A DNA stretch of 64,000 nt, taken from assembly GCA_014905635.1 (NCBI GenBank), contig JABVCE010000013.1, positions 744,001-808,000 on the forward strand, written 5' to 3'. The first letter of the stretch is position 1; each line of letters opens with the position of its first letter. Below the pieces are notes generated by a model. The model did not search any database. It was not told where the DNA came from and saw only the letters and a program-made list of their open reading frames with translations. This document shows, in pieces, positions 20,058 to 29,896 of the stretch. Made by a program: the position numbers and the translations under genes. The stretch comes from Scenedesmus sp. PABB004. Its lineage: Eukaryota.

Positions 20058-22172
20058 CTATGCCGGCGGCGGCGCCCGCCGCACGCTGCGCCAGAACCCC
20101 GCCGCCACGCGCGACCTGGCGCGCGCCAGCCGCTGCCACACCCGCGCCCACGCGCCCCGCCGGCCACCTGCTGGGGCGGGGGCCGCCCCCGGCTGCTGCC
20201 TGCCAGTGCCGCTGCCCCCCTGCCGGGGCTGGCCCCCCGGCGCCGCCCGCCGCCGCTCCTGCCCGCCCGCCGCCGCCGCCGCCGCCGCCGCGCGGCGCTG
20301 CTGCCAGCGCTCGCGCTGCGCGCGGCGCCGCGCGAGCGCGAGCAGGCGGCGCCCGATCGGCGTGCCGGGCGCGACCGCGGCCGTCGCCTGGCCCGTCTGC
20401 TGCAGGTCCCAGCTCCAGCGCGGATAGACGGGGCCGCCTTGGGGCTGTAGCGCGTCAGGGATGGAGCCGTCCGGGATGATGGGGCACAGCGGCCCCAGCC
20501 GCCCCGCGGTGAGGGCGCAGGTGCTCGGGCACTGCGCCGCGCCAGCCGCGCACACCACGTACGAGGTGCTCGCGTTCAGGCTCGCCACAAAGCCGGGCTG
20601 GCACACGCAGCCCGCAAAGGTGCCGGGGCAGGGCTGGTTGCCCGCGCGGCACGCGCAGCGCGTGACCGGCCGCGTCACGTTGGTGCTGGCGTTGAACAGG
20701 CGCTGCACGATCGGCTCGCAGCCGGGCGAGCACACGTAGCGAACCGGCTCGACCACGGTGCGGCAGAACGCGGCGGCGGCGATCACGTTGGTCGTGTCCA
20801 GCTTGCCCTCGCAGTCGATGCGCGCGCTGGCGGCGCGGCGCGGGGCGTCGGGCGGGGGCGGCGCGCGGGCGCGGGTCTCGCGGAGCGCCAGGGCCGCGCG
20901 GCGCGGCGGGCGCGGCGCCGCGCACGCGGCGGCGCGCTGCGAGCGCGCGGCGCACCAGACGGGCTCGCCCTCCCACTTTGTGAGGTTGCTGCCCGGGTTG
21001 CAGGCCATGCCGGTGACGTTGACCACCACGAACGACTGCCGCGGCACGCAGTAGCCTGCCGGGCGGCGCACGCAGCGCCACGGTCAGAGCGGGGCGCGAG
21101 CCGGCGGGCGCGCGCGCGCCGCGCGGCCCCCCGCACGGGCCCTCACCCGAGTCAAACGCCGTCGCGGGCACCGTCGTGACGGGCGGCCCGGGCTGGGTGA
21201 TGGCCGGCAGCGTGCCGCCCGCTGTGCCTGCCGCTGTGGCGCCTGCCTGGCCGGCGGCGGCGCCTGTGCCGCCCTGCTGCTGCTGCTGCTGCGGCTGCTG
21301 CGGCTGCTGCTGCTGCTGCGGCTGCTGCAGCTGCTGCTGCGGCTGCTGCTGCGGCTGCTGCGGCTGCTGCTGCAGCGGCTGCTGCTGCTGCTGCAGCGGC
21401 TGCTGCTGCGGCTGCTGCTGCTGCATCGGCGCAGCAGCCCCAGCGCTCGCGCCTGCCAGCCCGCTCGGCGCGGCGCCAGCACCAGCCTGCTGCGCGCCGC
21501 CCTGCACGACGCCCTGGCTGCTGCCACCGCTGCTGCTCCAGCTGCCAGGCGGCAGCGCGCCGCCCAGGGCAGCGCCGCCCGCCGCCTGGCCGTCCGCGGC
21601 GGCTGCCTCGAGGCCTGGCGGCGGCACGTATCGCCAGCTGCCTCCCCAGCCCGCAAACCTGTTTGTCTTGTCTATGGGGTTGAACTGGCCGTAGGGCAGC
21701 GGCAAGGGCAGCGACCGCGGCCCTGCGCCGCCCCACTGCCGCTGCGTCCAGCGCTCAGGCTGCGGCTGCTGCGGCTGCTGCTGTTGCTGCTGCGGCTGCT
21801 GCTGCGGCTGCTGCTGCCCCTGCTGTAGCACTGCGGCATCCTGCTGCAGCTTTCGGCGCAGCTGCAGCGGCGGCGGGCCGCCGCCGCGGGCCTGCGGGCG
21901 GCGGGCGGGGCCAGGCAGGTGGCTGTTGGCAGCCGGCGCATCGCGGGCTGCGGTGCTGGCGTAAGACGCGGCGTATACGGGAGAGCTGCCTGGCTGGCCG
22001 GCCACGCGCGGCGACGCTGCAGCGCTGCGCAGCGCACCTCGAGGCCGACCGCGCCATGCCGCCCCCGTCCCCGGTTCGCCTGGGCGCCCGTGAGCTCGCT
22101 CGGCAGCGCCAAGACGATGGAAAGAACAAAGACGATGCAGAGACGGCACCTCGCCCGCGCGGCCGCGGCCAT
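20058..22172 (-). CDS. Secreted protein with polyQ/QP N-region and Cys-rich C-terminal domain
   Basis: Signal-like LCIVFVLSIVLALP; introns at about 22037-21892, 21146-21057 and one further intron; RRKLQQ and GRRLL motifs; Cys-rich CACRAGNQPCPGTFAGCVCQPGF. The exact C-terminus is uncertain. Confidence 0.65.
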
Positions 22173-22309
22173 CCAGGCCTCGCTGCCCGGCGGCGGGCGC
22201 AGGCTGCTTCTGGTGGCGCCGCTCGCAGCTCGCCGCTGCCCGCTGCACGGCGGGTCAATCCGTGGGTCGCACGCCGGCTGGTCAGTCAGCCAGCGTCCGG
22301 GCAGGTTTG

Positions 22310-22314
22310 TTACA
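22310..22314 (-). promoter_or_regulatory. TGTAA polyadenylation signal for the DUF1997 gene
   Basis: TTACA on + strand about 390 nt past the DUF1997 stop. Confidence 0.5.
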
Positions 22315-22683
22315 CACGCGGAGGCGCATGCGCGCCGCCGCCGCCGCCAATGACAGAGCGCTCCAGCGACACACGCCTGCTACTCCTCTCCCTGAGCAAC
22401 GCACTCTCACGCACGCGGAAGCAACATCCTGCGCCGCCACCGCAATCGCGGCGGCCGCCGGCGCACGACACGGGCGTCGCGCGCGGCAAAGCGAGCGAGC
22501 AAACAAGGCCAGCAACGCACTCAATCTAAGGCACAAGGCAGCAAGATGAGGAGCGTGGGGGCGTTCTTCACACACTGCGCGGGAGAGGGCGCCGCCCCAT
22601 GAGCGGGGGCGCCAGCCCGCCTGCCTGCCCGTCTGCGTGCCGCGCAGCCCGCAGAGACCCTACTGCTGCTGCCGCTGCTGCTT

Positions 22684-22701
<18 letters not shown>

Positions 22702-22715
<14 letters not shown>

Positions 22716-24004
22716 GCTCCGCCGCCGCGGCGGCGGCGGCGCGCGCGGCCTTGGCGGCCGTGCGCGCGCGCCGCGCCGCGCGGTACTCCGGCTCGGCCGC
22801 CCACTTGGCGTAGTCGGCCGCGAGCTGGCGCATGAACCACGGCAGCAGCGAGCTCGTGAGGCCGCTGATGACGGCGTTGCAGCTGCGCACGAGCACCTCG
22901 CGCGGCATGAGCTGGAACGGCGGCACCACCTCGCACCACACCTGCACGTGCGACGCGCCGGTGATGCTCGCGCCGGCGGCGCCGCCGCTGCCGCTGCCGC
23001 TGCCGCTGCCGCCGCTGGCGCTGCCGCCGCTGGGCCAGCCGACGCCGTCCCTGAGCTTGTTCCAGCCCGTGCGCAGCTGCGCGCGCGTGCCGGGCGGGCG
23101 CGCCGCCGCCGCGGGCGCCGCGGGCGCGGGCGCCGCGGGCGCCGCCGCCGCGGATCCGGCCCAGGTGAGCCGCGTCTCAAACTCCATCGCGAAGCGGTCG
23201 TCGAGGCCGCCCATGACGCCGGCCGCGTTGAGCTGGCAGTCGGTCGCGCGCAGCACGACCGCGTCGGCCTCGGCGCGCACGCGCACCTCTATGACCGGCT
23301 GGAGGCTCGCGCCGAGCAGCGACAGCCGCGGCACGCGCAGCACGAAGCGGTCGTCGCAGCCCGCCACAAACTGGATCTGGGCGGGGTCGAGGCAGTAGTA
23401 CTGCTCCACCTGCGGGGCAGCAGCGGCGGCCAGGGCGTCGTGCAGGGCGGCGCGCAGCAGGCTGGTGCTGGCGCCGCGCATCACATGCACGGCCAGCGCC
23501 CGCGGCTCGCTCAGCGCCGCCAGGTTGGGGATGGTGCTGGCGCTCCAGCCGCGCAGGCGCGACAGGCTGAGCCGCGTGAGCGCGCAGGGCAGCGCGTGCG
23601 AGCCAACAAGCAGCGGTGCTCACCGGCAGGCGCATGTACGCGTCGAGCGACACGTCCTCGCCCCCGGCGGCCGGCCGGCTGGCGTCGCGCACGGGCACGC
23701 TCGCCGCGCCGCGCGCGCCGATCTCCGCGGGGTCGCGCAGGCGCTGCCAGCGCGCCGGGCGCGGCGGCGGCCGCAGCGCGGGCTGCGGCGGCGCCGGCGG
23801 CTGCAGCGGCGGCGGTGGCCCGCGCGCCGGGCGCTGCTGCTGCTGCGCGGCTGGCGCCGGCGGCGCCGCCGTGCTGGCGGCCGCGCCGCGCGCGCCGGAC
23901 GCGGGCGCCCGAGCCGTGGGCCGGCGTCCTGGGGCGGCCCGGGCGGCCCTGCAGGCCGTTGCGGGGCGCCCGCCGGCCTGGGGCCGCGCCGCCTGCAGCT
24001 GCAT
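22702..24004 (-). CDS. DUF1997 family protein (plastid/cyanobacterial type)
   Basis: Transit-like Arg/Ala/Pro N-terminus; SLDAYMRLP|VEQYYCLDP..FVLRVPRL..LQPVIEVRV..VWCEVVPPFQLMPREVL..FMRQLAADYAKWA; one intron at 23623-23410. Confidence 0.85.
23410..23623 (-). other. Intron composed of copied fragments of neighbouring genes
   Basis: 23429-23479 is an exact inverted copy of 21468-21518. 23485-23622 is a ~90%-identical direct copy of 25806-25962 with an 18-nt gap. Confidence 0.9.
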
Positions 24005-24361
24005 GGCCGCCCCGCGCCGCTGCTGGTGCTTCCCACAGTGAGAGCACGCCGGGAGCGGCCTGGCGCGGCCGGCAGCGCGGGCCGCGCGAGGCCAGCCGGT
24101 CGATCGCGGGGGCGCACTGCGACTGCTACGGCTGCCGCGGCTGCTGCGGGCGCGCCGAGGGTGTGAGATAGCGATGGGTCGGCGGGGGCAGCGGCAGGGC
24201 GCGCGGACTCAGCGGCGGCGCGCGGCGCGCGGGGCTTGTGCCTGCGCCCTGCCGCCGCTGATCAACTGCTTGCAACTTGGGCCCCAGCCGCAGCCCTTCG
24301 CCATCTGAGCCGCTGGCGCCACCGCTCGCCCGCCGGCGGGCGCCGCCGCACGGCGCTGCCT

Positions 24362-26534
24362 TCACCCCGCCGCCGCGCGGGCCGCCAGCTGCGCGCGCGC
24401 CGCCGCGAGCTGCTGCCGCAGCTCCTCCGCGCGCGCCTCGTGCGCCGCCGTCGCCGCCTCGTGCCGCCGCAGCGCGTCCTGCAGGAACGCTGCGTGCGAG
24501 GGCGCCACCTCCTCGTCAAACTGGTCCCACAGGTCGGGCGGCGAGGCCTGCAACGTGGCGGGCAGCGGCAGCGGTGAGTTGGCCGGCGGCCGCGTGCCAG
24601 GGCGCCCGCGCAGCTCTGCCTGCTCCGGCCCGCACCTCGGACTGCAGGTTGATGTGGGCTGGAAGGTCCACGGGGTCCTCGTGCGCCTCCCACATCTGAA
24701 AAAACAGCGCGTCGGACTCGACGAGCAGCCGGGTCAGCGCGGTCAGCGCCGTGAGCCGCACGATGCCCGCCGGCGACAGCTGCTCCGACGCCAGCACCGA
24801 CAGCTCACGCAGGCCGGTCAGGCGCGCCAGCACGTCGCCCGCCACGCCGTCGTCCACGCTGTCGCCGCCCACCACCAGCGACGTCAGCGCGCTCAGCTGC
24901 AGCAGCGCGCTCAGGCCCGCCCGCTCCTGGGGCTCCAGCGCGCCCAGCAGCGACAGCGCCTGCAGCCCCGGGCAGCAGCCGGCGACGCGCGCCAGCTCCG
25001 CCGCGCCCAGCACGGGCCCTGCCGGGCCGCTCTCTGCCTCATACAGGTCTGTGACATCACCAAAACCGTCCTCAAACGCCTCCTCGTCCACGCCCAGCCT
25101 CAGCACGCGCAGCGCGGCGCACGCAGGCGCGCCGACCGCTGGGAACGCGGCGAGCAGCGCGCCGGCAGGCAGGTCGCAGCCGCGCAGGTCGAGCTCGGTC
25201 AGGTGCGGCGACGCGGTGAGGCCCGCGTGCAGCCCCACATACTCGGCGTGCAGCTGCTCGCCATCGCCGTTGCCCACGCCGTTCAGACCTGCCAGGTCGT
25301 CCGCCGACAGCGGATCAAGCACCGCCCGGCCCAGGCGCAGGTGCCGCAGCTCGCACAGCAGCGGCAGCACACGCAGCAGAGTGCGCGTGTCGCCGTTGGG
25401 CAGGCACGAGCCCTCCCAGTCGCCCAGCCACAGCGAGGTGAGCGCAGAAGCGTGGTGGTGCAGCAGGGCCGGGTCAAACGAAGCAACTCCACACACATCC
25501 AGGCTCTGCAGGCGCGGCAGCTCGCGCAAGCTGCAGTCTGCCGCCAGCTCAAGCTGCCCCCATCCCCGCAGCTCCAGCAGCGTCACGCTGCGCGGCAGCG
25601 GCGGCAGCTCCGGTGCTGTTGCCACGTTGCTCAACCGCAGCTCGCGCAGCTCCTGCAGCTGGCTGACAGGGGCCAGGCCGCGGGCCTCGCCGCTGAGCAA
25701 CACCTCCGAATAGCCACCACCATGCCAGCTGGCCCCCAGGCTGAGCGACGTGAGCGCGCGCATGCCAGTCAAAAAGCGCAGGTCTACCTCTTCGGTATAA
25801 CGCAAATGCACGGCCAGTGCCTGCAGCTCGCTCAGCGCCGCGAGGTTGGGAATGGTGAACCTGCGCGGCTGGTGGCTTGCGCTCCAGCCGCGCAGGTGCG
25901 ACAGGCTGAGCCGCGTGAGCGCGCAGGGCAGCGCGTGCGAGCCAGCCAGCAGCGGTTGCTCAGATTCGAACTTTGTCTCCGCAAGCTCCAGGTCGCGCAG
26001 GGCTGCCAGCCTGCTGAGCTCACACGCCAGCGAGCCACGGCACTCGTGCAGCCGCAAGCTGGTGAGCTGCGGGCCCGCCGGCCGCGCCGCGGCGGCACCG
26101 GCGCACGCCGGGTCTGCCGCTGCGCCGCCCGCTGCTGCCGCCGCGCCGTCTGCCGTCCGCGCGTCCGGCGGCAGCAGCTGCGCCCCGTCCAGGCTGAGGT
26201 GCCGCAGCGCCGGCAGCCGCAGCAGCCGCGGTAGCTCCACCTCCAGCCAGGGGCTAGACACCTCCGCGCGCTCCACGTGGCGGCCGTGCCGGCCCAGCCA
26301 CTCCAAAAGCGCCTTGCCCTTCTGCTTGTCGTTTGTGGTGATCTGCACCTCGCTGATCGCCAGCACCGCCGCCGCGCGCCACGCGCGCGACACGCGCGCC
26401 GCGGCGCCGAGGCGCTCCTGGGTGCTCAGGCGGCGGAGCGCCAGCGTCAGCACCTCCGCCGGCAGCTCCTCCCAGCCGGCAGCTCCTCCCAGCCCTGCCG
26501 GCCCGCTGCTGCGCTTGCTGGCACGCTGACCCAT
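24362..26534 (-). CDS. F-box/LRR protein with C-terminal coiled coil (paralog 1)
   Basis: F-box WEELPAEVLTLALRRLSTQERLGAAARVSRAWRAA; many LxxLxxLxL repeats; one late intron (about 24635-24548); last exon ASPPDLWDQF..EELRQQLAAARAQL. Confidence 0.85.
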
Positions 26535-26667
26535 GGCGCTGGCGCCAGCGAACAGGCCTGCGCGCGGCAGCGGCACGGCCGGCGTGAGCGCGGCGCGCCG
26601 CCCGGTGGTCGCCGGCGCCGCCTGGCTGCCCACGCCACTCGTGACCGCTGCCGCCAGCGGTCCATCC

Positions 26668-26972
26668 ACGCACCGGGGAGGCGGAGGGCGCTGTGGCCGG
26701 CGGCGCGGCGCCGCTGCTGCTGCTGCGCCGCGTGCCGCGGGCGCTGCCGCGGGCCCGGCGGGGGCGCTGGGGCCGCGGGGGCGTCGTCGGTGGGGCGCTG
26801 GAGGGCGCGCCCAGGCGCGCCTGGCGCCTGGCGCCTGGCAGGAGAGGCGGGGGCAGCAGCGGCGGCACGCGCTGCTGCGGGGCGCGCCGCGCGGGCGAGG
26901 CACGGCCGGCTGCTCGCGGCGGCGCGGGCCGTGGCGCCTCCCTGTCTTTGGGGAGCCACCGGAGGGTGCGAC
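26668..26972. repeat. ~300-bp duplicated non-coding block, copy 1 (upstream of F-box/LRR paralog 1)
   Basis: Aligns by eye at roughly 80% identity with 30093-30395, same orientation. Confidence 0.85.
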
Positions 26973-27297
26973 GGCATGCGGGGCGCCACGACGCGGCAGC
27001 CCTGAACAGGGAGAACCGCCAGTTTCCCGCCCGCCGCGCTCGGCAACGGACGCGTCGCGCGTGCGGCAGCGGTGGGCTGAGCAGCGCGCGCGACGGCGGC
27101 GCCTCAACTCGACGCTTGCAACTCGGCGAGCGGGGGGCCGCACGGCAGTGGCCCCCAGACGCAACTGCGCACGCACCACACACACGCACACGCCGCCGTT
27201 GCGCGCGCTCCTGAAACGCCCGCGCCGCCAGCAACCGGCGCGCCCGCCCCACCCCGCGCCCACACCGGCCAGCCGCCCCTGACTCCTCCCCGCCGTC

Positions 27298-29896
27298 TCA
27301 GCCACTTGCCGCTGCGCCCGCTGGCGCGGGCGCCACTGCCTGCCCCGCCGCTCCCGCCGCCGCCAGCAGCTGCCGCTGCACGTCCGCCAGCTCGGCCTCC
27401 AGGGCCAGCACCTTCGCTGCCGCCGCTGCGGCCTGCGCCTTCTCAGCCCCAATCAGCCCCGCCATGACGATCTCAGCGTAAGCTTGCAGCCGCAGTGGCA
27501 CTGGCTTGGGGCGCGCGGGCTGCCCCGCCAGGCCGTGCCGCGCGGCGGAGATCTGCGCGGCCGGCGGCGGCGCGGCGGCGCGGCGGCGTTGGAGCGGCAG
27601 GAGCGGCAGGTGTCGCCATGTGCGCAGCAGCGCGTGGCTGGGCCCCACGCCAGTCGACGCCGCGCTGCCGACGCCCGCTCCGCAGCCGCGCGCGGGCACC
27701 CACCATGACCAGGCCTGGGAGGGCCGCCTTGCGGCCAGTGGGCGTCTGCATGATCGGGTCGTCGCAGTTCTCCTCAAAGTGACGGGGGATGTCGACGACA
27801 TCCAGCAGGCTCTCAAACATCCACTCCTCAACGTGCCCCACGGCGCGGTCCACCTCGCGCGAGTGCGCACGCGCCTGGCACATCACCGCCGTGAGCGCGG
27901 TGAGCGCGGTGAGGTGCAGCACCCCGCGCACCGTCAGCGCCTCCAGCCCCACCAGCGACAGCTCGGCCAGGCCCGGCAGCGCTCCCGCCAGCGCCGCCGC
28001 CAGCGCGTCGCCGGACGCCGCGCCGTGCAGGTTTTCGAGCTGCAGCAGCGTCAGCGCAGACAGCGCACTCAGCTCTGCCAGCGACGGCACGCCGTCGTCC
28101 GCGACACAGCCAAACAGCGACAGCTGCTGCAGCCCGGGGCACGCCGCCACCAGGGCGCCCAGCTCGGCCGTGCCCAGCGTGGGGCTCGCGGCGCGGCGGA
28201 ACCAGCCCTCCCAGCCGCCCCCGACGCCCTCGTCCCTGGCCCACATCACCTTGCTCACGCCGCTCTGCCCCAGCTCCAGCACGCGCAGCGCGCCCAGCTG
28301 GCCCAGCTCAAACATCGACGTCAGCGCGCTCCCCGGCGCCACGTCGCCGAGGCGCTCCAGCAGCTGCAGGCTGGTGAGCTGCGGCGACGCGGCGAGCGCC
28401 GCAAACGCGGCGATCTGCTCGGGGCTGGCCGGCGGCGGCGGCGCGTGGGGCTGCGGCTCCGGCTCCTCGCCGTCGCTGTCGCCGTCGAGGTGGTACCCGC
28501 CACAGAAAGGGCAGGGCTGGAGCTGCAGCGGGTTCTGGTGATGCTGCTGCGCCAGCTTTGGCAGGGCGTCGGGGCCCACCACCAGGCACTGCATGGCCTG
28601 CAGGCCCTGCAGCGCGGTGAGCCCGTCTGCCGACCGCAGCAGCTGGGCGTCGCGCCAGTCCTCGCGTGTGCCCGGGCCCACCAGCTCGCACGAGGTGAGC
28701 GCGGTCAGCGGCGCCAGCCAGGCGGGGTCCAGCTCCGCGACGCGCTCGACACGCAGCTCCTGCAGAGCCGTCAACTGGCCGGCGCCGCCAGGCGTGAGAT
28801 GAAGGTCGAGGCAGAACTCCAGCGCCAGCCGCGTGAGGGCGGGCGGCAGCTGGGGCAGGACCACGCCGCCGCCGCCCCTCAGCTGGAGCTCGCGCAGGCG
28901 CGCCAGGGAGCTGACGGCCGCCAGCCCCGAGGCGCCGCTGGCCGCCTGCGTGCAGCGCGCCAGGCGGCGTGCTCAGGCCGCATCCGGGGGCGTCGAGCGC
29001 GCACGGCGCACCAACCAAGCGCAAAGCACACTCTCCACGCTGCCGGCTCTCATGTGCGTGCGCGTGTGCTCCCTGCCCACGCGTGCACCTGGCCGCACCT
29101 TGAGGAACGTCAGCTGCGCCATGGTGCCCAGGCAGGCCAGGTCCGCGCCGTCGGGGGAGACCTCGTCCAGCTGCAGGTGCTGCAGCTCGCGAAGCGTCAG
29201 CAGGCTGGGAATGGCGGCGGCGCTGAACGCCAGCACCCTGCTCGCGACGTCCAGCCGCGTGAGGCTCGCCGGCAGCGGCCCCAGGGCGGCGGCGGTGGCC
29301 CAGGTCGAGAGCCCCCCAGAGGCGGCCAGCTGCAGGTAGCGCAGGCCGGTGCACGACCGCAGCTCGCACAGCACGCCGGCGAGGGTGTCGCCGCGGGCGA
29401 GGCGGCAGCCCTCCAAGCGCAGGAACGCCAGCGCCGGCAGCTGTGCGGCGCCGGGCGGGGCCGGCTGGCCCGGAGCGTCGCCGGCCGGCGGCTGCAGGTC
29501 GATGCGCGCCAGGTTCAGGCGGCGCAGCTGCCGCATGCGGTGCAGCGGCAGCGACAGCGGCAGGCAGCGGGAGGCGTAGCTTGAGCCGTCCACGTCCAGC
29601 GTCACCACCACGCTGCCGTGCTTGGCGAGCCACGCGGACAGGCCGCGGCCACGCGCCGCGAGCGCACTCTCGCCCCTCCACCAGCCGGCCCTGAAGCTCA
29701 CGGCCAGCTCCGCGCACGCCGCGGTAGCGGCGGCGGCCCAGGCCTTGCTGACGAGCGCCGCCACCTTCATGCGCGTGGCCGCGTCCAGGCGCGCCAGCAC
29801 GGCGGCGAGCAGGTCGCGCGGGAGCGGGCCCTCGTCCTCCTCGCGCGCCGCCTCGCTCGCCGCCGCCTCGCGGCGCGCCATCGCGCGGGTGCGCAT
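27298..29896 (-). CDS. F-box/LRR protein with C-terminal coiled coil (paralog 2)
   Basis: F-box LPRDLLAAVLARLDAATRMKVAALVSKAW; WLAKHG; LRRs; about 2 introns; C-terminal VLALEAELADVQRQL. Confidence 0.82.

Follow-up and report, generated by a model that had tools for sequence, protein, structure and literature searches.

A putative intron made of copies of both neighbouring genes in a DUF1997 gene of a GC-rich green alga

Where new introns get their sequence has long been asked, and gains by break repair whose source can be traced amount to only a handful. For most new introns the source is unknown (PMC4202315), and excerpts of one review count five unambiguous events of gain by break repair (PMC3443670). 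In the known cases foreign DNA was placed at a break in coding sequence, bounded by GT..AG, with the frame restored and a short repeat at both ends, and it came from mitochondrial DNA, from rRNA or from no known source. The intron described here shares these traits, the short repeat being GTG, but nearly all of its body traces to two flanking nuclear genes and the gain itself is only a candidate. Similar junctions on both sides are also found in gains by tandem duplication, in which AGGT is duplicated (excerpts of PMC3443670), whereas here the body comes from two other genes and not from a duplicate of the adjoining exon. Introners and transposon-derived introns are likewise young introns with recognisable foreign sequence (compare PMC3609843), but in our case the window shows neither a multi-copy family nor element ends, the sources being open frames of host genes. 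In a limited literature search no earlier description of an intron built out of two neighbouring genes came up.

The closest described repair products are those of polymerase theta, which in Chlamydomonas leaves templated insertions, sometimes copied from templates kilobases off and usually 3-30 bp long (according to excerpts of PMC8495919). As in polymerase-theta end joining, or synthesis-dependent MMEJ (excerpts of PMC8495919 and PMC7407515), the templates are here in cis, both direct and inverted, the 5' and internal junctions may lie at short homologies, and what looks like a snap-back scar is found next door in an F-box/LRR gene. Like a templated insertion, the insert is near-identical to nearby direct and inverted sequence. 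It differs in its tracts of ~153 and 51 nt, beyond the typical 3-30 bp, and in having a template on either side at a distance of about 2 kb. A mosaic of mixed orientation, produced when synthesis switches repeatedly from one nearby template to another at microhomologies, is also the mark of MMBIR and FoSTeS. These two are usually called upon to explain copy-number changes of kilobase-to-megabase size, while the present case is a 214-nt insert inside a gene. The lengths of the two tracts appear to fit longer-tract synthesis, of the SDSA or MMBIR type, better than polymerase theta.

The intron and its host gene

The window, that is, the whole 64-kb stretch of DNA that was analysed (78.5% GC), contains a nuclear DUF1997 gene of a very GC-rich green alga related to Sphaeropleales. 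The gene has the following parts:

23624..24004, minus strand: coding exon 1 of the DUF1997 gene, 127 codons from the first ATG of the open frame (predicted start codon)
23410..23623, minus strand: intron, 214 nt, phase 0, with GT at 23623-23622 and AG at 23411-23410
22702..23409, minus strand: coding exon 2 of the DUF1997 gene, 235 codons plus stop
Splice contexts, minus strand, by sequence reading: donor CCG/GTGAGC, with the boundary after CCG; acceptor CCCCGCAG, then exon G

The translation of exon 1 aligns with the N-terminal parts of homologues (DPAEIGARG...SLDAYMRLP), and exon 2 matches the Pfam family PF09366, DUF1997 (E 3e-18, 66.9 bits with a cut-off of 27, profile positions 16-153 of 153). 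In-silico removal of the 214 nt joins SLDAYMRLP to VEQYYCLDP, matching the homologues. This intron is the sole interruption of the gene within the window, and its length (214 = 3x71+1) is such that retention would lead to a frameshift. The word GGTGAGC was found to be enriched in the window (35 observed, 15.0 +/- 3.8 expected), so that the donor of this intron, G/GTGAGC, is the enriched donor-like word of the window. Both the ends, in a usable context, and the restored frame are as expected of a U2-type GT-AG spliceosomal intron.

Almost the whole intron is a mosaic of two pieces in opposite orientations:

23470..23622, minus strand: LRR-derived piece, in the same orientation as the LRR gene
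23470..23479: 10 nt common to both sources (GGCGCCGCGC on the plus strand), putative template-switch microhomology
23429..23479, plus strand: left-derived piece, perfect 51-nt inverted copy of 21468-21518, with an imperfect extension to 23423
23410..23428, minus strand: 19-nt tail with the acceptor, ending ...CGCAG

Altogether 195 of the 214 nt could be traced to the two sources, in agreement with the initial annotation, which had described the intron as nearly all borrowed DNA. Comparison of 23380-23660 with the window by blastn gave three matches (E 3e-34 to 4e-15), namely 23536-23617 with 25875-25956 (82 nt, 95.1%, E 3e-34), 23429-23479 with 21518-21468 in inverted orientation (51 nt, 100%, E 3e-23) and 23485-23536 with 25806-25857 (52 nt, 90.4%, E 4e-15). 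When the whole window was compared with itself (dust on, E<1e-6) all the non-self HSPs (3 of 3) were these intron matches, so that the mosaic is not a product of background repetitiveness, even at such a high GC content. The self-comparison that had been proposed as a check returned the expected matches in their expected places, the perfect 51-nt inverted copy among them, and no other non-trivial repeats. In a repeat search the inverted pair extends to 57 nt at 96% (21468-21524 / 23423-23479). Both sources run on into their native flanks, and the junction between the pieces is found in the intron, which identifies the intron as the recipient.

Global alignment of the intron with the LRR gene, in gene orientation, contains 10 substitutions, one 1-nt indel and one 18-nt indel. 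The direct copy (23485-23622 / 25806-25962) and both indels were thus as first described, the substitutions being 10 where about 9 had been counted, and the similarity, said to reach the donor, runs to the second base of it. A 17-mer match at 26850-26866 was considered as the origin of the 19-nt tail and rejected as insignificant, 17-mers recurring at 4.8% of the window positions (3064/63984).

At the 5' junction the LRR gene reads CTGAGCAACCGC and the intron GTGAGCA-CCGC; the letters that this junction has in common with the LRR gene are TG, or TGAGCA if one gap is allowed. Exon 2 begins with GTGGAGCA, and GTG is present at both ends of the insert. The two junctions are alike, CTGCCG/GTG-AGCA on one side and CCGCAG/GTGGAGCA on the other, with an imperfect likeness over a 14-mer. 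The flanking GTG repeat is a weak signal that partly follows from the splice-site consensus.

The two source segments

The sources lie on either side of the DUF1997 gene:

25806..25962, minus strand: right-hand source segment, within the F-box/LRR gene (open frame 24516-27452, approximately residues 497-549)
21468..21518, minus strand: left source segment, within the open frame 20455-22254, low-complexity and Q-rich

The product of the right-hand gene has an F-box-like domain (25.4 bits, cut-off 24.3) and an LRR_14 match at residues 471-653 that scores 30.2 bits, below the Pfam cut-off of 40. The source piece is located inside this Pfam-matched LRR stretch, with the reading frame kept and a GC3 of 0.91, indicating that copying went from the LRR gene to the intron. 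Among shorter proteins 0 of 2990 candidates matched the LRR source region. For the left neighbour a protein search found no homologue among 1.84 billion representatives, and there was no usable Atlas match and no Pfam family; the codon-usage coding score over 21420-21539 is negative in all six frames. Both sources had initially been taken as coding sequence, which holds for the LRR gene, while the left source is better described as an open frame of ambiguous coding status.

Relative to the frame of the left gene, the left-derived piece would be in antisense in the pre-mRNA, and the intron had been proposed as a possible source of regulatory small RNA. Its fold is unremarkable (z-score +0.73, with 157 of 200 shuffles folding equally well or better) and Rfam has no match inside it, the 21 sub-threshold matches in 21000-26500 being all elsewhere, most of them on CTG repeats. 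Neither a stable hairpin nor a known family, as would be expected of an intronic small-RNA precursor, was found, and the proposal received no support.

A search of sequencing runs for this stretch gave one DNA-type metagenome run (0.07 share of words) and no RNA run. A variant of the LRR source was recovered from relatives in this metagenome, the Logan contigs of which were aligned to the window at 80% likeness. A total of 424 short contigs aligned (69 at least 99% alike, 128 at 95-99%, 80 at 90-95% and 147 below 90%), with relatives at 96-99% identity among their sources. In two of them (depth 14 and 7.4, side 43) the LRR flank runs to 25784 and is followed by 5-6 letters and then by the sequence from 23470 or 23469 onward. 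These LRR-variant contigs have one listed difference from the intron copy (23504 G>A), and all the listed depth at 23504 comes from them. The variant of the relative has 21 nt between the shared flanks, the same length as the reference gene and in frame, placing ATCAC and GGCGCCGCGC within a variant of an LRR gene. It matches the intron copy through ATCAC and ten more bases; within the LRR-derived piece 23485-23622 matches the reference LRR gene and 23470-23484 only the metagenome variant. The five letters ATCAC, first described as a spacer between the two pieces, are unmatched only in the comparison with the reference LRR gene; covered as they are by the variant, they are probably LRR-derived rather than filler. 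The 10-mer that follows is native both in the left gene (21468-21477) and in the LRR variant of the relative, and the two pieces probably overlap in this 10-nt microhomology, a reading that rests on metagenome contigs whose joints carry a caution. In the same run none of the 15 joints listed, out of 26, skipped the 214 nt. In scans of metagenome contigs the 22-nt word across the junction of the two pieces had 0 matches and a DUF1997 alignment gave 32 pattern matches, 0 of them confirmed; two exact words gave 0 and 0 matches in prokaryote genome contigs.

Origin of the insert

From this anatomy we consider it likely, with a probability of roughly 70%, that this is a GT-AG phase-0 spliceosomal intron the body of which was recently written by break repair, copying nearby DNA and switching templates at short homologies, most likely in one event. 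The sequence itself shows the mosaic with its orientations, the words at the splice sites, the restored protein and the uniqueness within the window; that there was a break, which polymerase acted on it, that a single event sufficed and how the steps followed one another are inferences. The steps might have been as follows. A broken 3' end at CCG GTG would have primed, via TG or TGAGCA, on the LRR gene 2.3 kb upstream, and about 153 nt of the LRR coding strand would have been copied. The 10-nt homology (GCGCGGCGCC) would then have let synthesis move over to the left neighbour, 1.9 kb downstream and on the opposite strand, where another 41-51 nt would have been copied before the end was rejoined via the 19-nt tail ending in ...CGCAG. 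Almost every base of the intron can be assigned to one of two donors that are still adjacent, and this, together with the junction homologies, is what makes a repair route readable.

The position of the intron was compared in homologues, 26 of which were found and 23 compared across the site. None of these relatives is close (identity in the conserved block does not exceed 75%), and they were read as proteins, those from jgi and lgn being assumed to be intron-blind ORF calls on genomic contigs. The site is uninterrupted (YM(R/Q/T)LPVEQYY) in 20 of the 23, including P0016, the sister of the window protein in the tree (bootstrap 70), which reads straight across. For nine of the uninterrupted proteins the longest contig exceeds 6 kb (P0007, 174 kb; P0014, 172 kb; P0005, 33 kb; P0002, 15 kb; and P0011, P0025, P0010, P0006 and P0009). 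One of the remaining three, P0012, has unrelated letters before YILDP, and two, the Scenedesmaceae-type P0028 and P0029, start exactly at V/M-EQYY, where an in-frame ATG would sit 4 codons upstream had the exon continued. Their starts suggest an intron at or beside the same site in another family. Short proteins matching the frame of intron plus exon 2 gave 7 matches, all of them distant DUF1997 fragments and 0 with the intron part.

The initial annotation had left a choice between gain and replacement by local templated repair. The local repair part is favoured by two nearby sources that are single-copy in the window, by the microhomology at the 5' junction and by the putative 10-nt overlap at the internal one; as to the choice, creation of the intron and refilling of an older one have roughly even odds if the mechanism is accepted. 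Creation de novo, in a gene that was intronless at the site, is a tentative reading that falls short of an even chance. The relatives that read straight across, among them the sister and the nine proteins on contigs of more than 6 kb, argue for it, as does the absence of any other interruption of the gene within the window, and with 195 of the 214 nt traceable no body of an old intron is left. The copies are nearly undiverged, so that the content is young, and the GTG at both ends, with the intron start GTG-AGCA mirroring the start of exon 2, recalls the short flanking repeats of the gains in Daphnia (excerpts of PMC3443670). But an insert in an exon must be spliced at once, while changes inside an existing intron are neutral and far likelier a priori; P0028, P0029 and P0012 depart from the uninterrupted pattern precisely at or near this place, and the intron-blind nature of the jgi and lgn calls is an assumption. 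With the same tentative standing, a break could have emptied an older intron that templated synthesis then refilled, keeping the donor GTGAGC and the last 19 nt with the acceptor. Neutrality makes such an event likely a priori. No further assumption is needed to account for the consensus splice sites and the 19-nt tail, the 5-6 nt of homology, TGAGC(A), seen at the 5' junction call for no more than one additional change, and the same three proteins may hint at an intron at or near the site in two other lineages. This course of events requires the intron to have been lost several times independently, in the sister and in three or more further clades, as well as a deletion whose end on one side lay no more than about 7 nt from the exon, and it turns the likeness of the intron start to the start of exon 2 into a coincidence. 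Should close relatives prove intronless at the site, nature would here have supplied an unusually clean case of an intron created by templated repair; should they have the intron, the locus would show fast and near-complete overwriting of the content with the position kept, which bears on the dating of introns by sequence. In either case a cheap genome-wide screen is suggested, for introns that match exons within a few kilobases.

Local templated repair fits the anatomy better than any of the other explanations. It is unlikely that an older LRR-derived insertion came first and that the left neighbour donated the other piece very recently, by insertion or gene conversion. Judged by the reference sources, the divergence of the two pieces is 10/138 and 0/51 (P=0.022 if equal), and a piece diverged by 7% next to an identical one would suggest two events if the variant of the relative were left aside. 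Of the 5 sites within 23485-23536 at which intron and reference differ, this variant has the letter of the intron copy at 4, so that most of the divergence is on the side of the reference LRR gene; at its 1/70, zero differences in 51 nt have P=0.48, which removes the apparent mismatch in age, and the two blocks abut in a common 10-mer. It is rather improbable that end joining captured free DNA or cDNA fragments of both neighbouring transcribed genes in place of synthesis on chromosomal templates, even if both sources are in open frames of neighbouring genes and 'filler DNA' at breaks is documented (excerpts of PMC3296678 and PMC1976456). Both sources are in cis at less than 2.5 kb, which fits local template choice, and the putative 10-nt overlap and the TG/TGAGCA homology point to synthesis primed by annealing, although, the source stretches being intronless, DNA and RNA templates would look the same. 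That the intron does not work, either because a recent insertion broke the gene or because the assembly is chimeric, with GT..AG there by coincidence, seems very improbable. Copies this young would leave even an inactivated gene looking intact, but the ends of the insert coincide exactly with GTGAGC...CGCAG, no other placement brings back every conserved codon, and an assembler error would hardly produce a mosaic from two sources bounded by consensus splice sites. Least credible of all is a dispersed repeat or mobile element, introner-like and unrelated to the neighbours, since there are no further copies in the 64 kb, the LRR block falls in frame within an LRR domain, and the insert has no terminal repeats and an ordinary fold.

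Scars in the LRR gene

The donor gene differs from the intron copy in two short segments:

25858..25875, minus strand: 18-nt in-frame segment of the LRR gene, absent from the intron copy in the alignment
25785..25805, minus strand: 21-nt in-frame patch of the reference LRR gene with the lowest GC (0.65)

The low-GC patch is of equal length to the corresponding 21 nt of the variant and of the intron copy but strongly unlike them. Within the other segment 14 nt, 25859-25872, recur on the opposite strand at 25884-25897 with 100% identity, and the segment was accordingly interpreted as a templated insertion that the LRR gene acquired by snap-back. The 18 nt had originally been described as a gap; this inverted repeat makes an insertion in the LRR gene more likely than a deletion from the intron, and the 18 extra bases look like a later event in the reference gene. 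The LRR gene would then bear a second scar of the same type, exactly at the indel of the intron copy. A bolder and rather doubtful reading is that of a working intron born at about 1% divergence, through one multi-template repair at the P/V boundary of a conserved gene without other interruptions, which copied from both flanking genes, gave consensus splice sites at once and scarred the LRR donor (18 nt plus the rewritten 21-nt patch) in the same episode. If this were true, donor and recipient would have been damaged together. Local inverted repeats comparable to that of the 18-nt segment were seen in 5 of 20000 shuffles and in 12 of 798 real tiles of the window.

The intron and its copied blocks

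The DUF1997 gene and both its neighbours lie on the minus strand, with the following features:

20455-22254, minus strand: open frame of the left gene (source of the 51-mer, 21468-21518)
22702-23409, minus strand: exon 2 of the DUF1997 gene
23410-23623, minus strand: the intron
23410-23428: tail of the intron, at the acceptor
23429-23479: 51-mer of the intron, followed by the 5 nt ATCAC
23485-23622: LRR block of the intron
23624-24004, minus strand: exon 1 of the DUF1997 gene
24516-27452, minus strand: frame of the right-hand F-box/LRR gene (source of the LRR block, 25806-25962)

The frame 22702-23409 matched the DUF1997 Pfam profile at 66.9 bits (positions 16-153 of 153). By direct reading the intron (214 nt) starts with GT and finishes with AG, and joining the flanking frames by coordinates gives a 362-residue protein with ...EDVSLDAYMRLP|VEQYYCLDPAQIQF... 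at the splice junction. Twenty of 23 aligned homologues are uninterrupted across this stretch, two start exactly at VEQYY/MEQYY and one has unrelated letters as far as YILDP. The length of the intron is 3x71+1, so that its retention would shift the frame. G|GTGAGC was seen 35 times in the window, about twice the 15.0 +/- 3.8 of composition-matched simulations, and we read it as the preferred donor of this genome. Judging from the sequence, a chimeric assembly seems unlikely, as it would have to end in consensus splice sites at the sole frame-restoring placement. The intron can be read without a stop codon in phase with exon 2, but every frame is open at this G+C (78.5% for the window) and nothing can be concluded from this. 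Third codon positions reach 0.98 G+C in exon 2. Long stretches of the whole window are open in all six frames, and ORF length therefore has no weight here.

The initial annotation had described this intron as a perfect 51-nt inverted copy from the left gene plus a direct copy of the LRR exon reaching the donor. Blastn against the window recovered the former at 51/51 identity (23429-23479 against the reverse complement of 21468-21518, E 3e-23), within an extended inverted pair of 57 nt at 96% found by a repeat search of the window. The latter appeared as two matches, LRR gene 25875-25956 with intron 23536-23617 (82 nt, 95.1%, E 3e-34) and 25806-25857 with 23485-23536 (52 nt, 90.4%, E 4e-15). 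In gene orientation, the global alignment carried the likeness to the second base of the donor, with the 1-nt indel and the 18-nt gap as annotated and 10 substitutions instead of about nine. With the low-complexity filter on, these three were the only non-self matches of the whole-window self-comparison at E<1e-6, which indicates that the repeats are specific to the intron and do not simply reflect the abundance of CTG/CGG runs. Neither blastn nor the self-comparison found further copies of the blocks within the 64-kb window, and this speaks, within the limits of such a stretch, against a mobile element as their origin.

The 51-nt antisense match between the intron and the left gene's frame is real. 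The proposal that the intron might be a source of regulatory small RNA is left without support, since its RNA fold was no better than shuffles (z +0.73) and no Rfam family was found in it. Matches to isrG and several mir families at 21285-21448 and 21773-21874 fell on CTG/CAG repeats far below gathering scores and were rejected as composition artefacts.

Donor genes and a probable variant of the LRR gene

Both sources continue into their own flanks and their junction is present in the intron only, which makes the intron the derived mosaic. Both pieces had been annotated as copies of coding sequence. This holds for the LRR block, whose source falls within the LRR match of the right-hand gene (F-box-like domain above the Pfam cut-off, LRR_14 below it) and whose intron copy keeps the frame and a third-position G+C of 0.91. 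It is uncertain for the left source: a search of 1.84 billion representatives gave no homologue of its 599-residue frame, which has no Pfam family either, and codon-usage scores for all six frames of 21420-21539 are below zero, with weakly positive values in the left gene's frame to both sides. The left neighbour (20058-22254) consists of a Cys-rich frame, for which there was no usable Atlas hit, and a Q-rich low-complexity frame, and is either an orphan or a wrong gene model. Immediately upstream of the F-box/LRR gene, and on its strand, there is a second LRR-type frame (27473-28972, LRR_14 at E 7.5e-7, below cut-off); it has no DNA match to the intron and may belong to a tandem LRR family.

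Contigs of one freshwater metagenome, the sole public run sharing words with the region, were aligned to the window at 80% likeness. Close relatives are represented by pieces such as one of 287 nt (2 differences) and one of 639 nt (20 differences). In two of the contigs, at depths of 14 and 7.4 and with a shorter side of 43 letters, the LRR-gene flank runs as far as 25784 and is followed, after 5-6 letters, by sequence from 23469/23470 onward. The LRR flank is thereby joined to the intron copy, within which a single difference is listed (23504 G>A). Between the shared flanks they have 21 nt, equal in length to 25785-25805 of the reference LRR gene and in frame, translated as V M R G A E L against L R Y T E E V in the reference. 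We hold with moderate confidence that these short contigs, from one metagenome and with a joint of a type that calls for caution, represent a variant of the LRR gene, allele or orthologue. ATCAC and the ten bases GGCGCCGCGC would, with similar confidence, be native in this variant, and the left gene carries GGCGCCGCGC natively at 21468-21477. The two blocks would thus overlap in a 10-nt homology, and ATCAC would not be the 5-nt separator it had been taken for.

Within 23485-23536 there are five sites at which the intron departs from the reference LRR gene. The contigs have no listed difference from the intron at four of these, and have the LRR gene's base at the fifth (23504), indicating that most of the 7% divergence arose on the reference LRR gene's side. 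A 51-mer without differences has P=0.022 at a divergence of 10/138 and P=0.48 at 1/70, so the perfect 51-mer no longer seems younger than the LRR block. The 18 bases 25858-25875, present in the LRR gene and absent from the intron, include a perfect 14-nt inverted copy of 25884-25897, 12 nt further on. Shuffling the region produced a local inverted repeat of this kind 5 times in 20000, and 12 of 798 real window tiles have one; here one of its two arms coincides with the 18-nt indel. This fits an insertion in the LRR gene of the templated snap-back type (reviewed in PMC7407515), after copying or in another allele; a deletion in the intron fits less well. The segment is in frame and adds six residues to an LRR repeat. 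The low-G+C patch 25785-25805 could be a conversion tract or repair patch; it differs from the relative's same-length variant at about 12 of 21 positions, while the flanks agree. Seven of the 10 substituted sites have A/T in the reference LRR gene and G/C in the intron copy. Together, insertion, patch and A/T bias make this part of the reference LRR gene a cluster of changes.

Probable templated repair, with intron gain or refilling

Repair of a break would have drawn on two templates close by, the first copied in direct and the second in inverted orientation, and would have changed template where there was a short homology, as at the shared 10-mer. The 5' junction has a homology of TG (or TGAGCA with one gap) and the insert is flanked by GTG at both ends; together with the two templates and the shared 10-mer, this points to templated break repair. 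In Chlamydomonas, polymerase-theta repair makes templated insertions from templates that can be kilobases away, usually of 3-30 bp (PMC8495919). With about 153 and 51 nt the present tracts exceed this range, so SDSA, MMBIR or a similar longer-tract route is at least as likely. The best match of the 19-nt acceptor tail is an exact 17-mer in the upstream part of the LRR gene (23414-23430 = 26850-26866), which could be a third template, but recurring 17-mers occur at 4.8% of window positions, so the match carries little weight.

Seven proposed routes of intron gain and five unambiguous break-repair cases are described in a 2012 review (PMC3443670), and a survey in Drosophila looked among nuclear and mitochondrial sequences for the origin of gained introns (PMC3296678). 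According to a Daphnia study, a few doubtful hits and those to mitochondrial or rRNA sequence aside, most new introns have no known source (PMC4202315). From comparison with these cases, and with no report of an intron assembled from two neighbouring genes in the literature covered by our search terms, we file this one as a case of templated break repair in which an intron was either altered or created.

Whether the repair created the intron or rewrote the body of an older one is about an even bet, also after the comparison with orthologues proposed in the initial annotation. The relatives were compared as proteins, all distant (75% identity or less in the conserved block), taking the jgi and lgn sets as intron-blind ORF calls. 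The ORF of the sister protein P0016 (bootstrap 70) and nine ORFs on contigs >6 kb cross the site uninterrupted, which argues for gain, as does the fact that the gene has no other intron here, that the donors account for 195 of 214 nt and that the start of exon 2 is mirrored by the start of the intron. On the other hand, two Scenedesmaceae-type ORFs begin exactly at VEQYY, even though a continuing exon would offer an ATG four codons upstream, and the sequence of homologue P0012 hints at an intron a few codons from the site; in a refilled intron, the tail and the consensus splice sites would be remnants of the old one. Changes within an existing intron are neutral, making refilling likelier a priori. 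Fragments of five homologues (P0012, P0018, P0021, P0028 and P0029) begin or become unrelated at differing places (before VEQYY, before YILDP, before DAVILQ or after FAMQ). The intron positions of the DUF1997 gene appear to vary a lot among Sphaeropleales.
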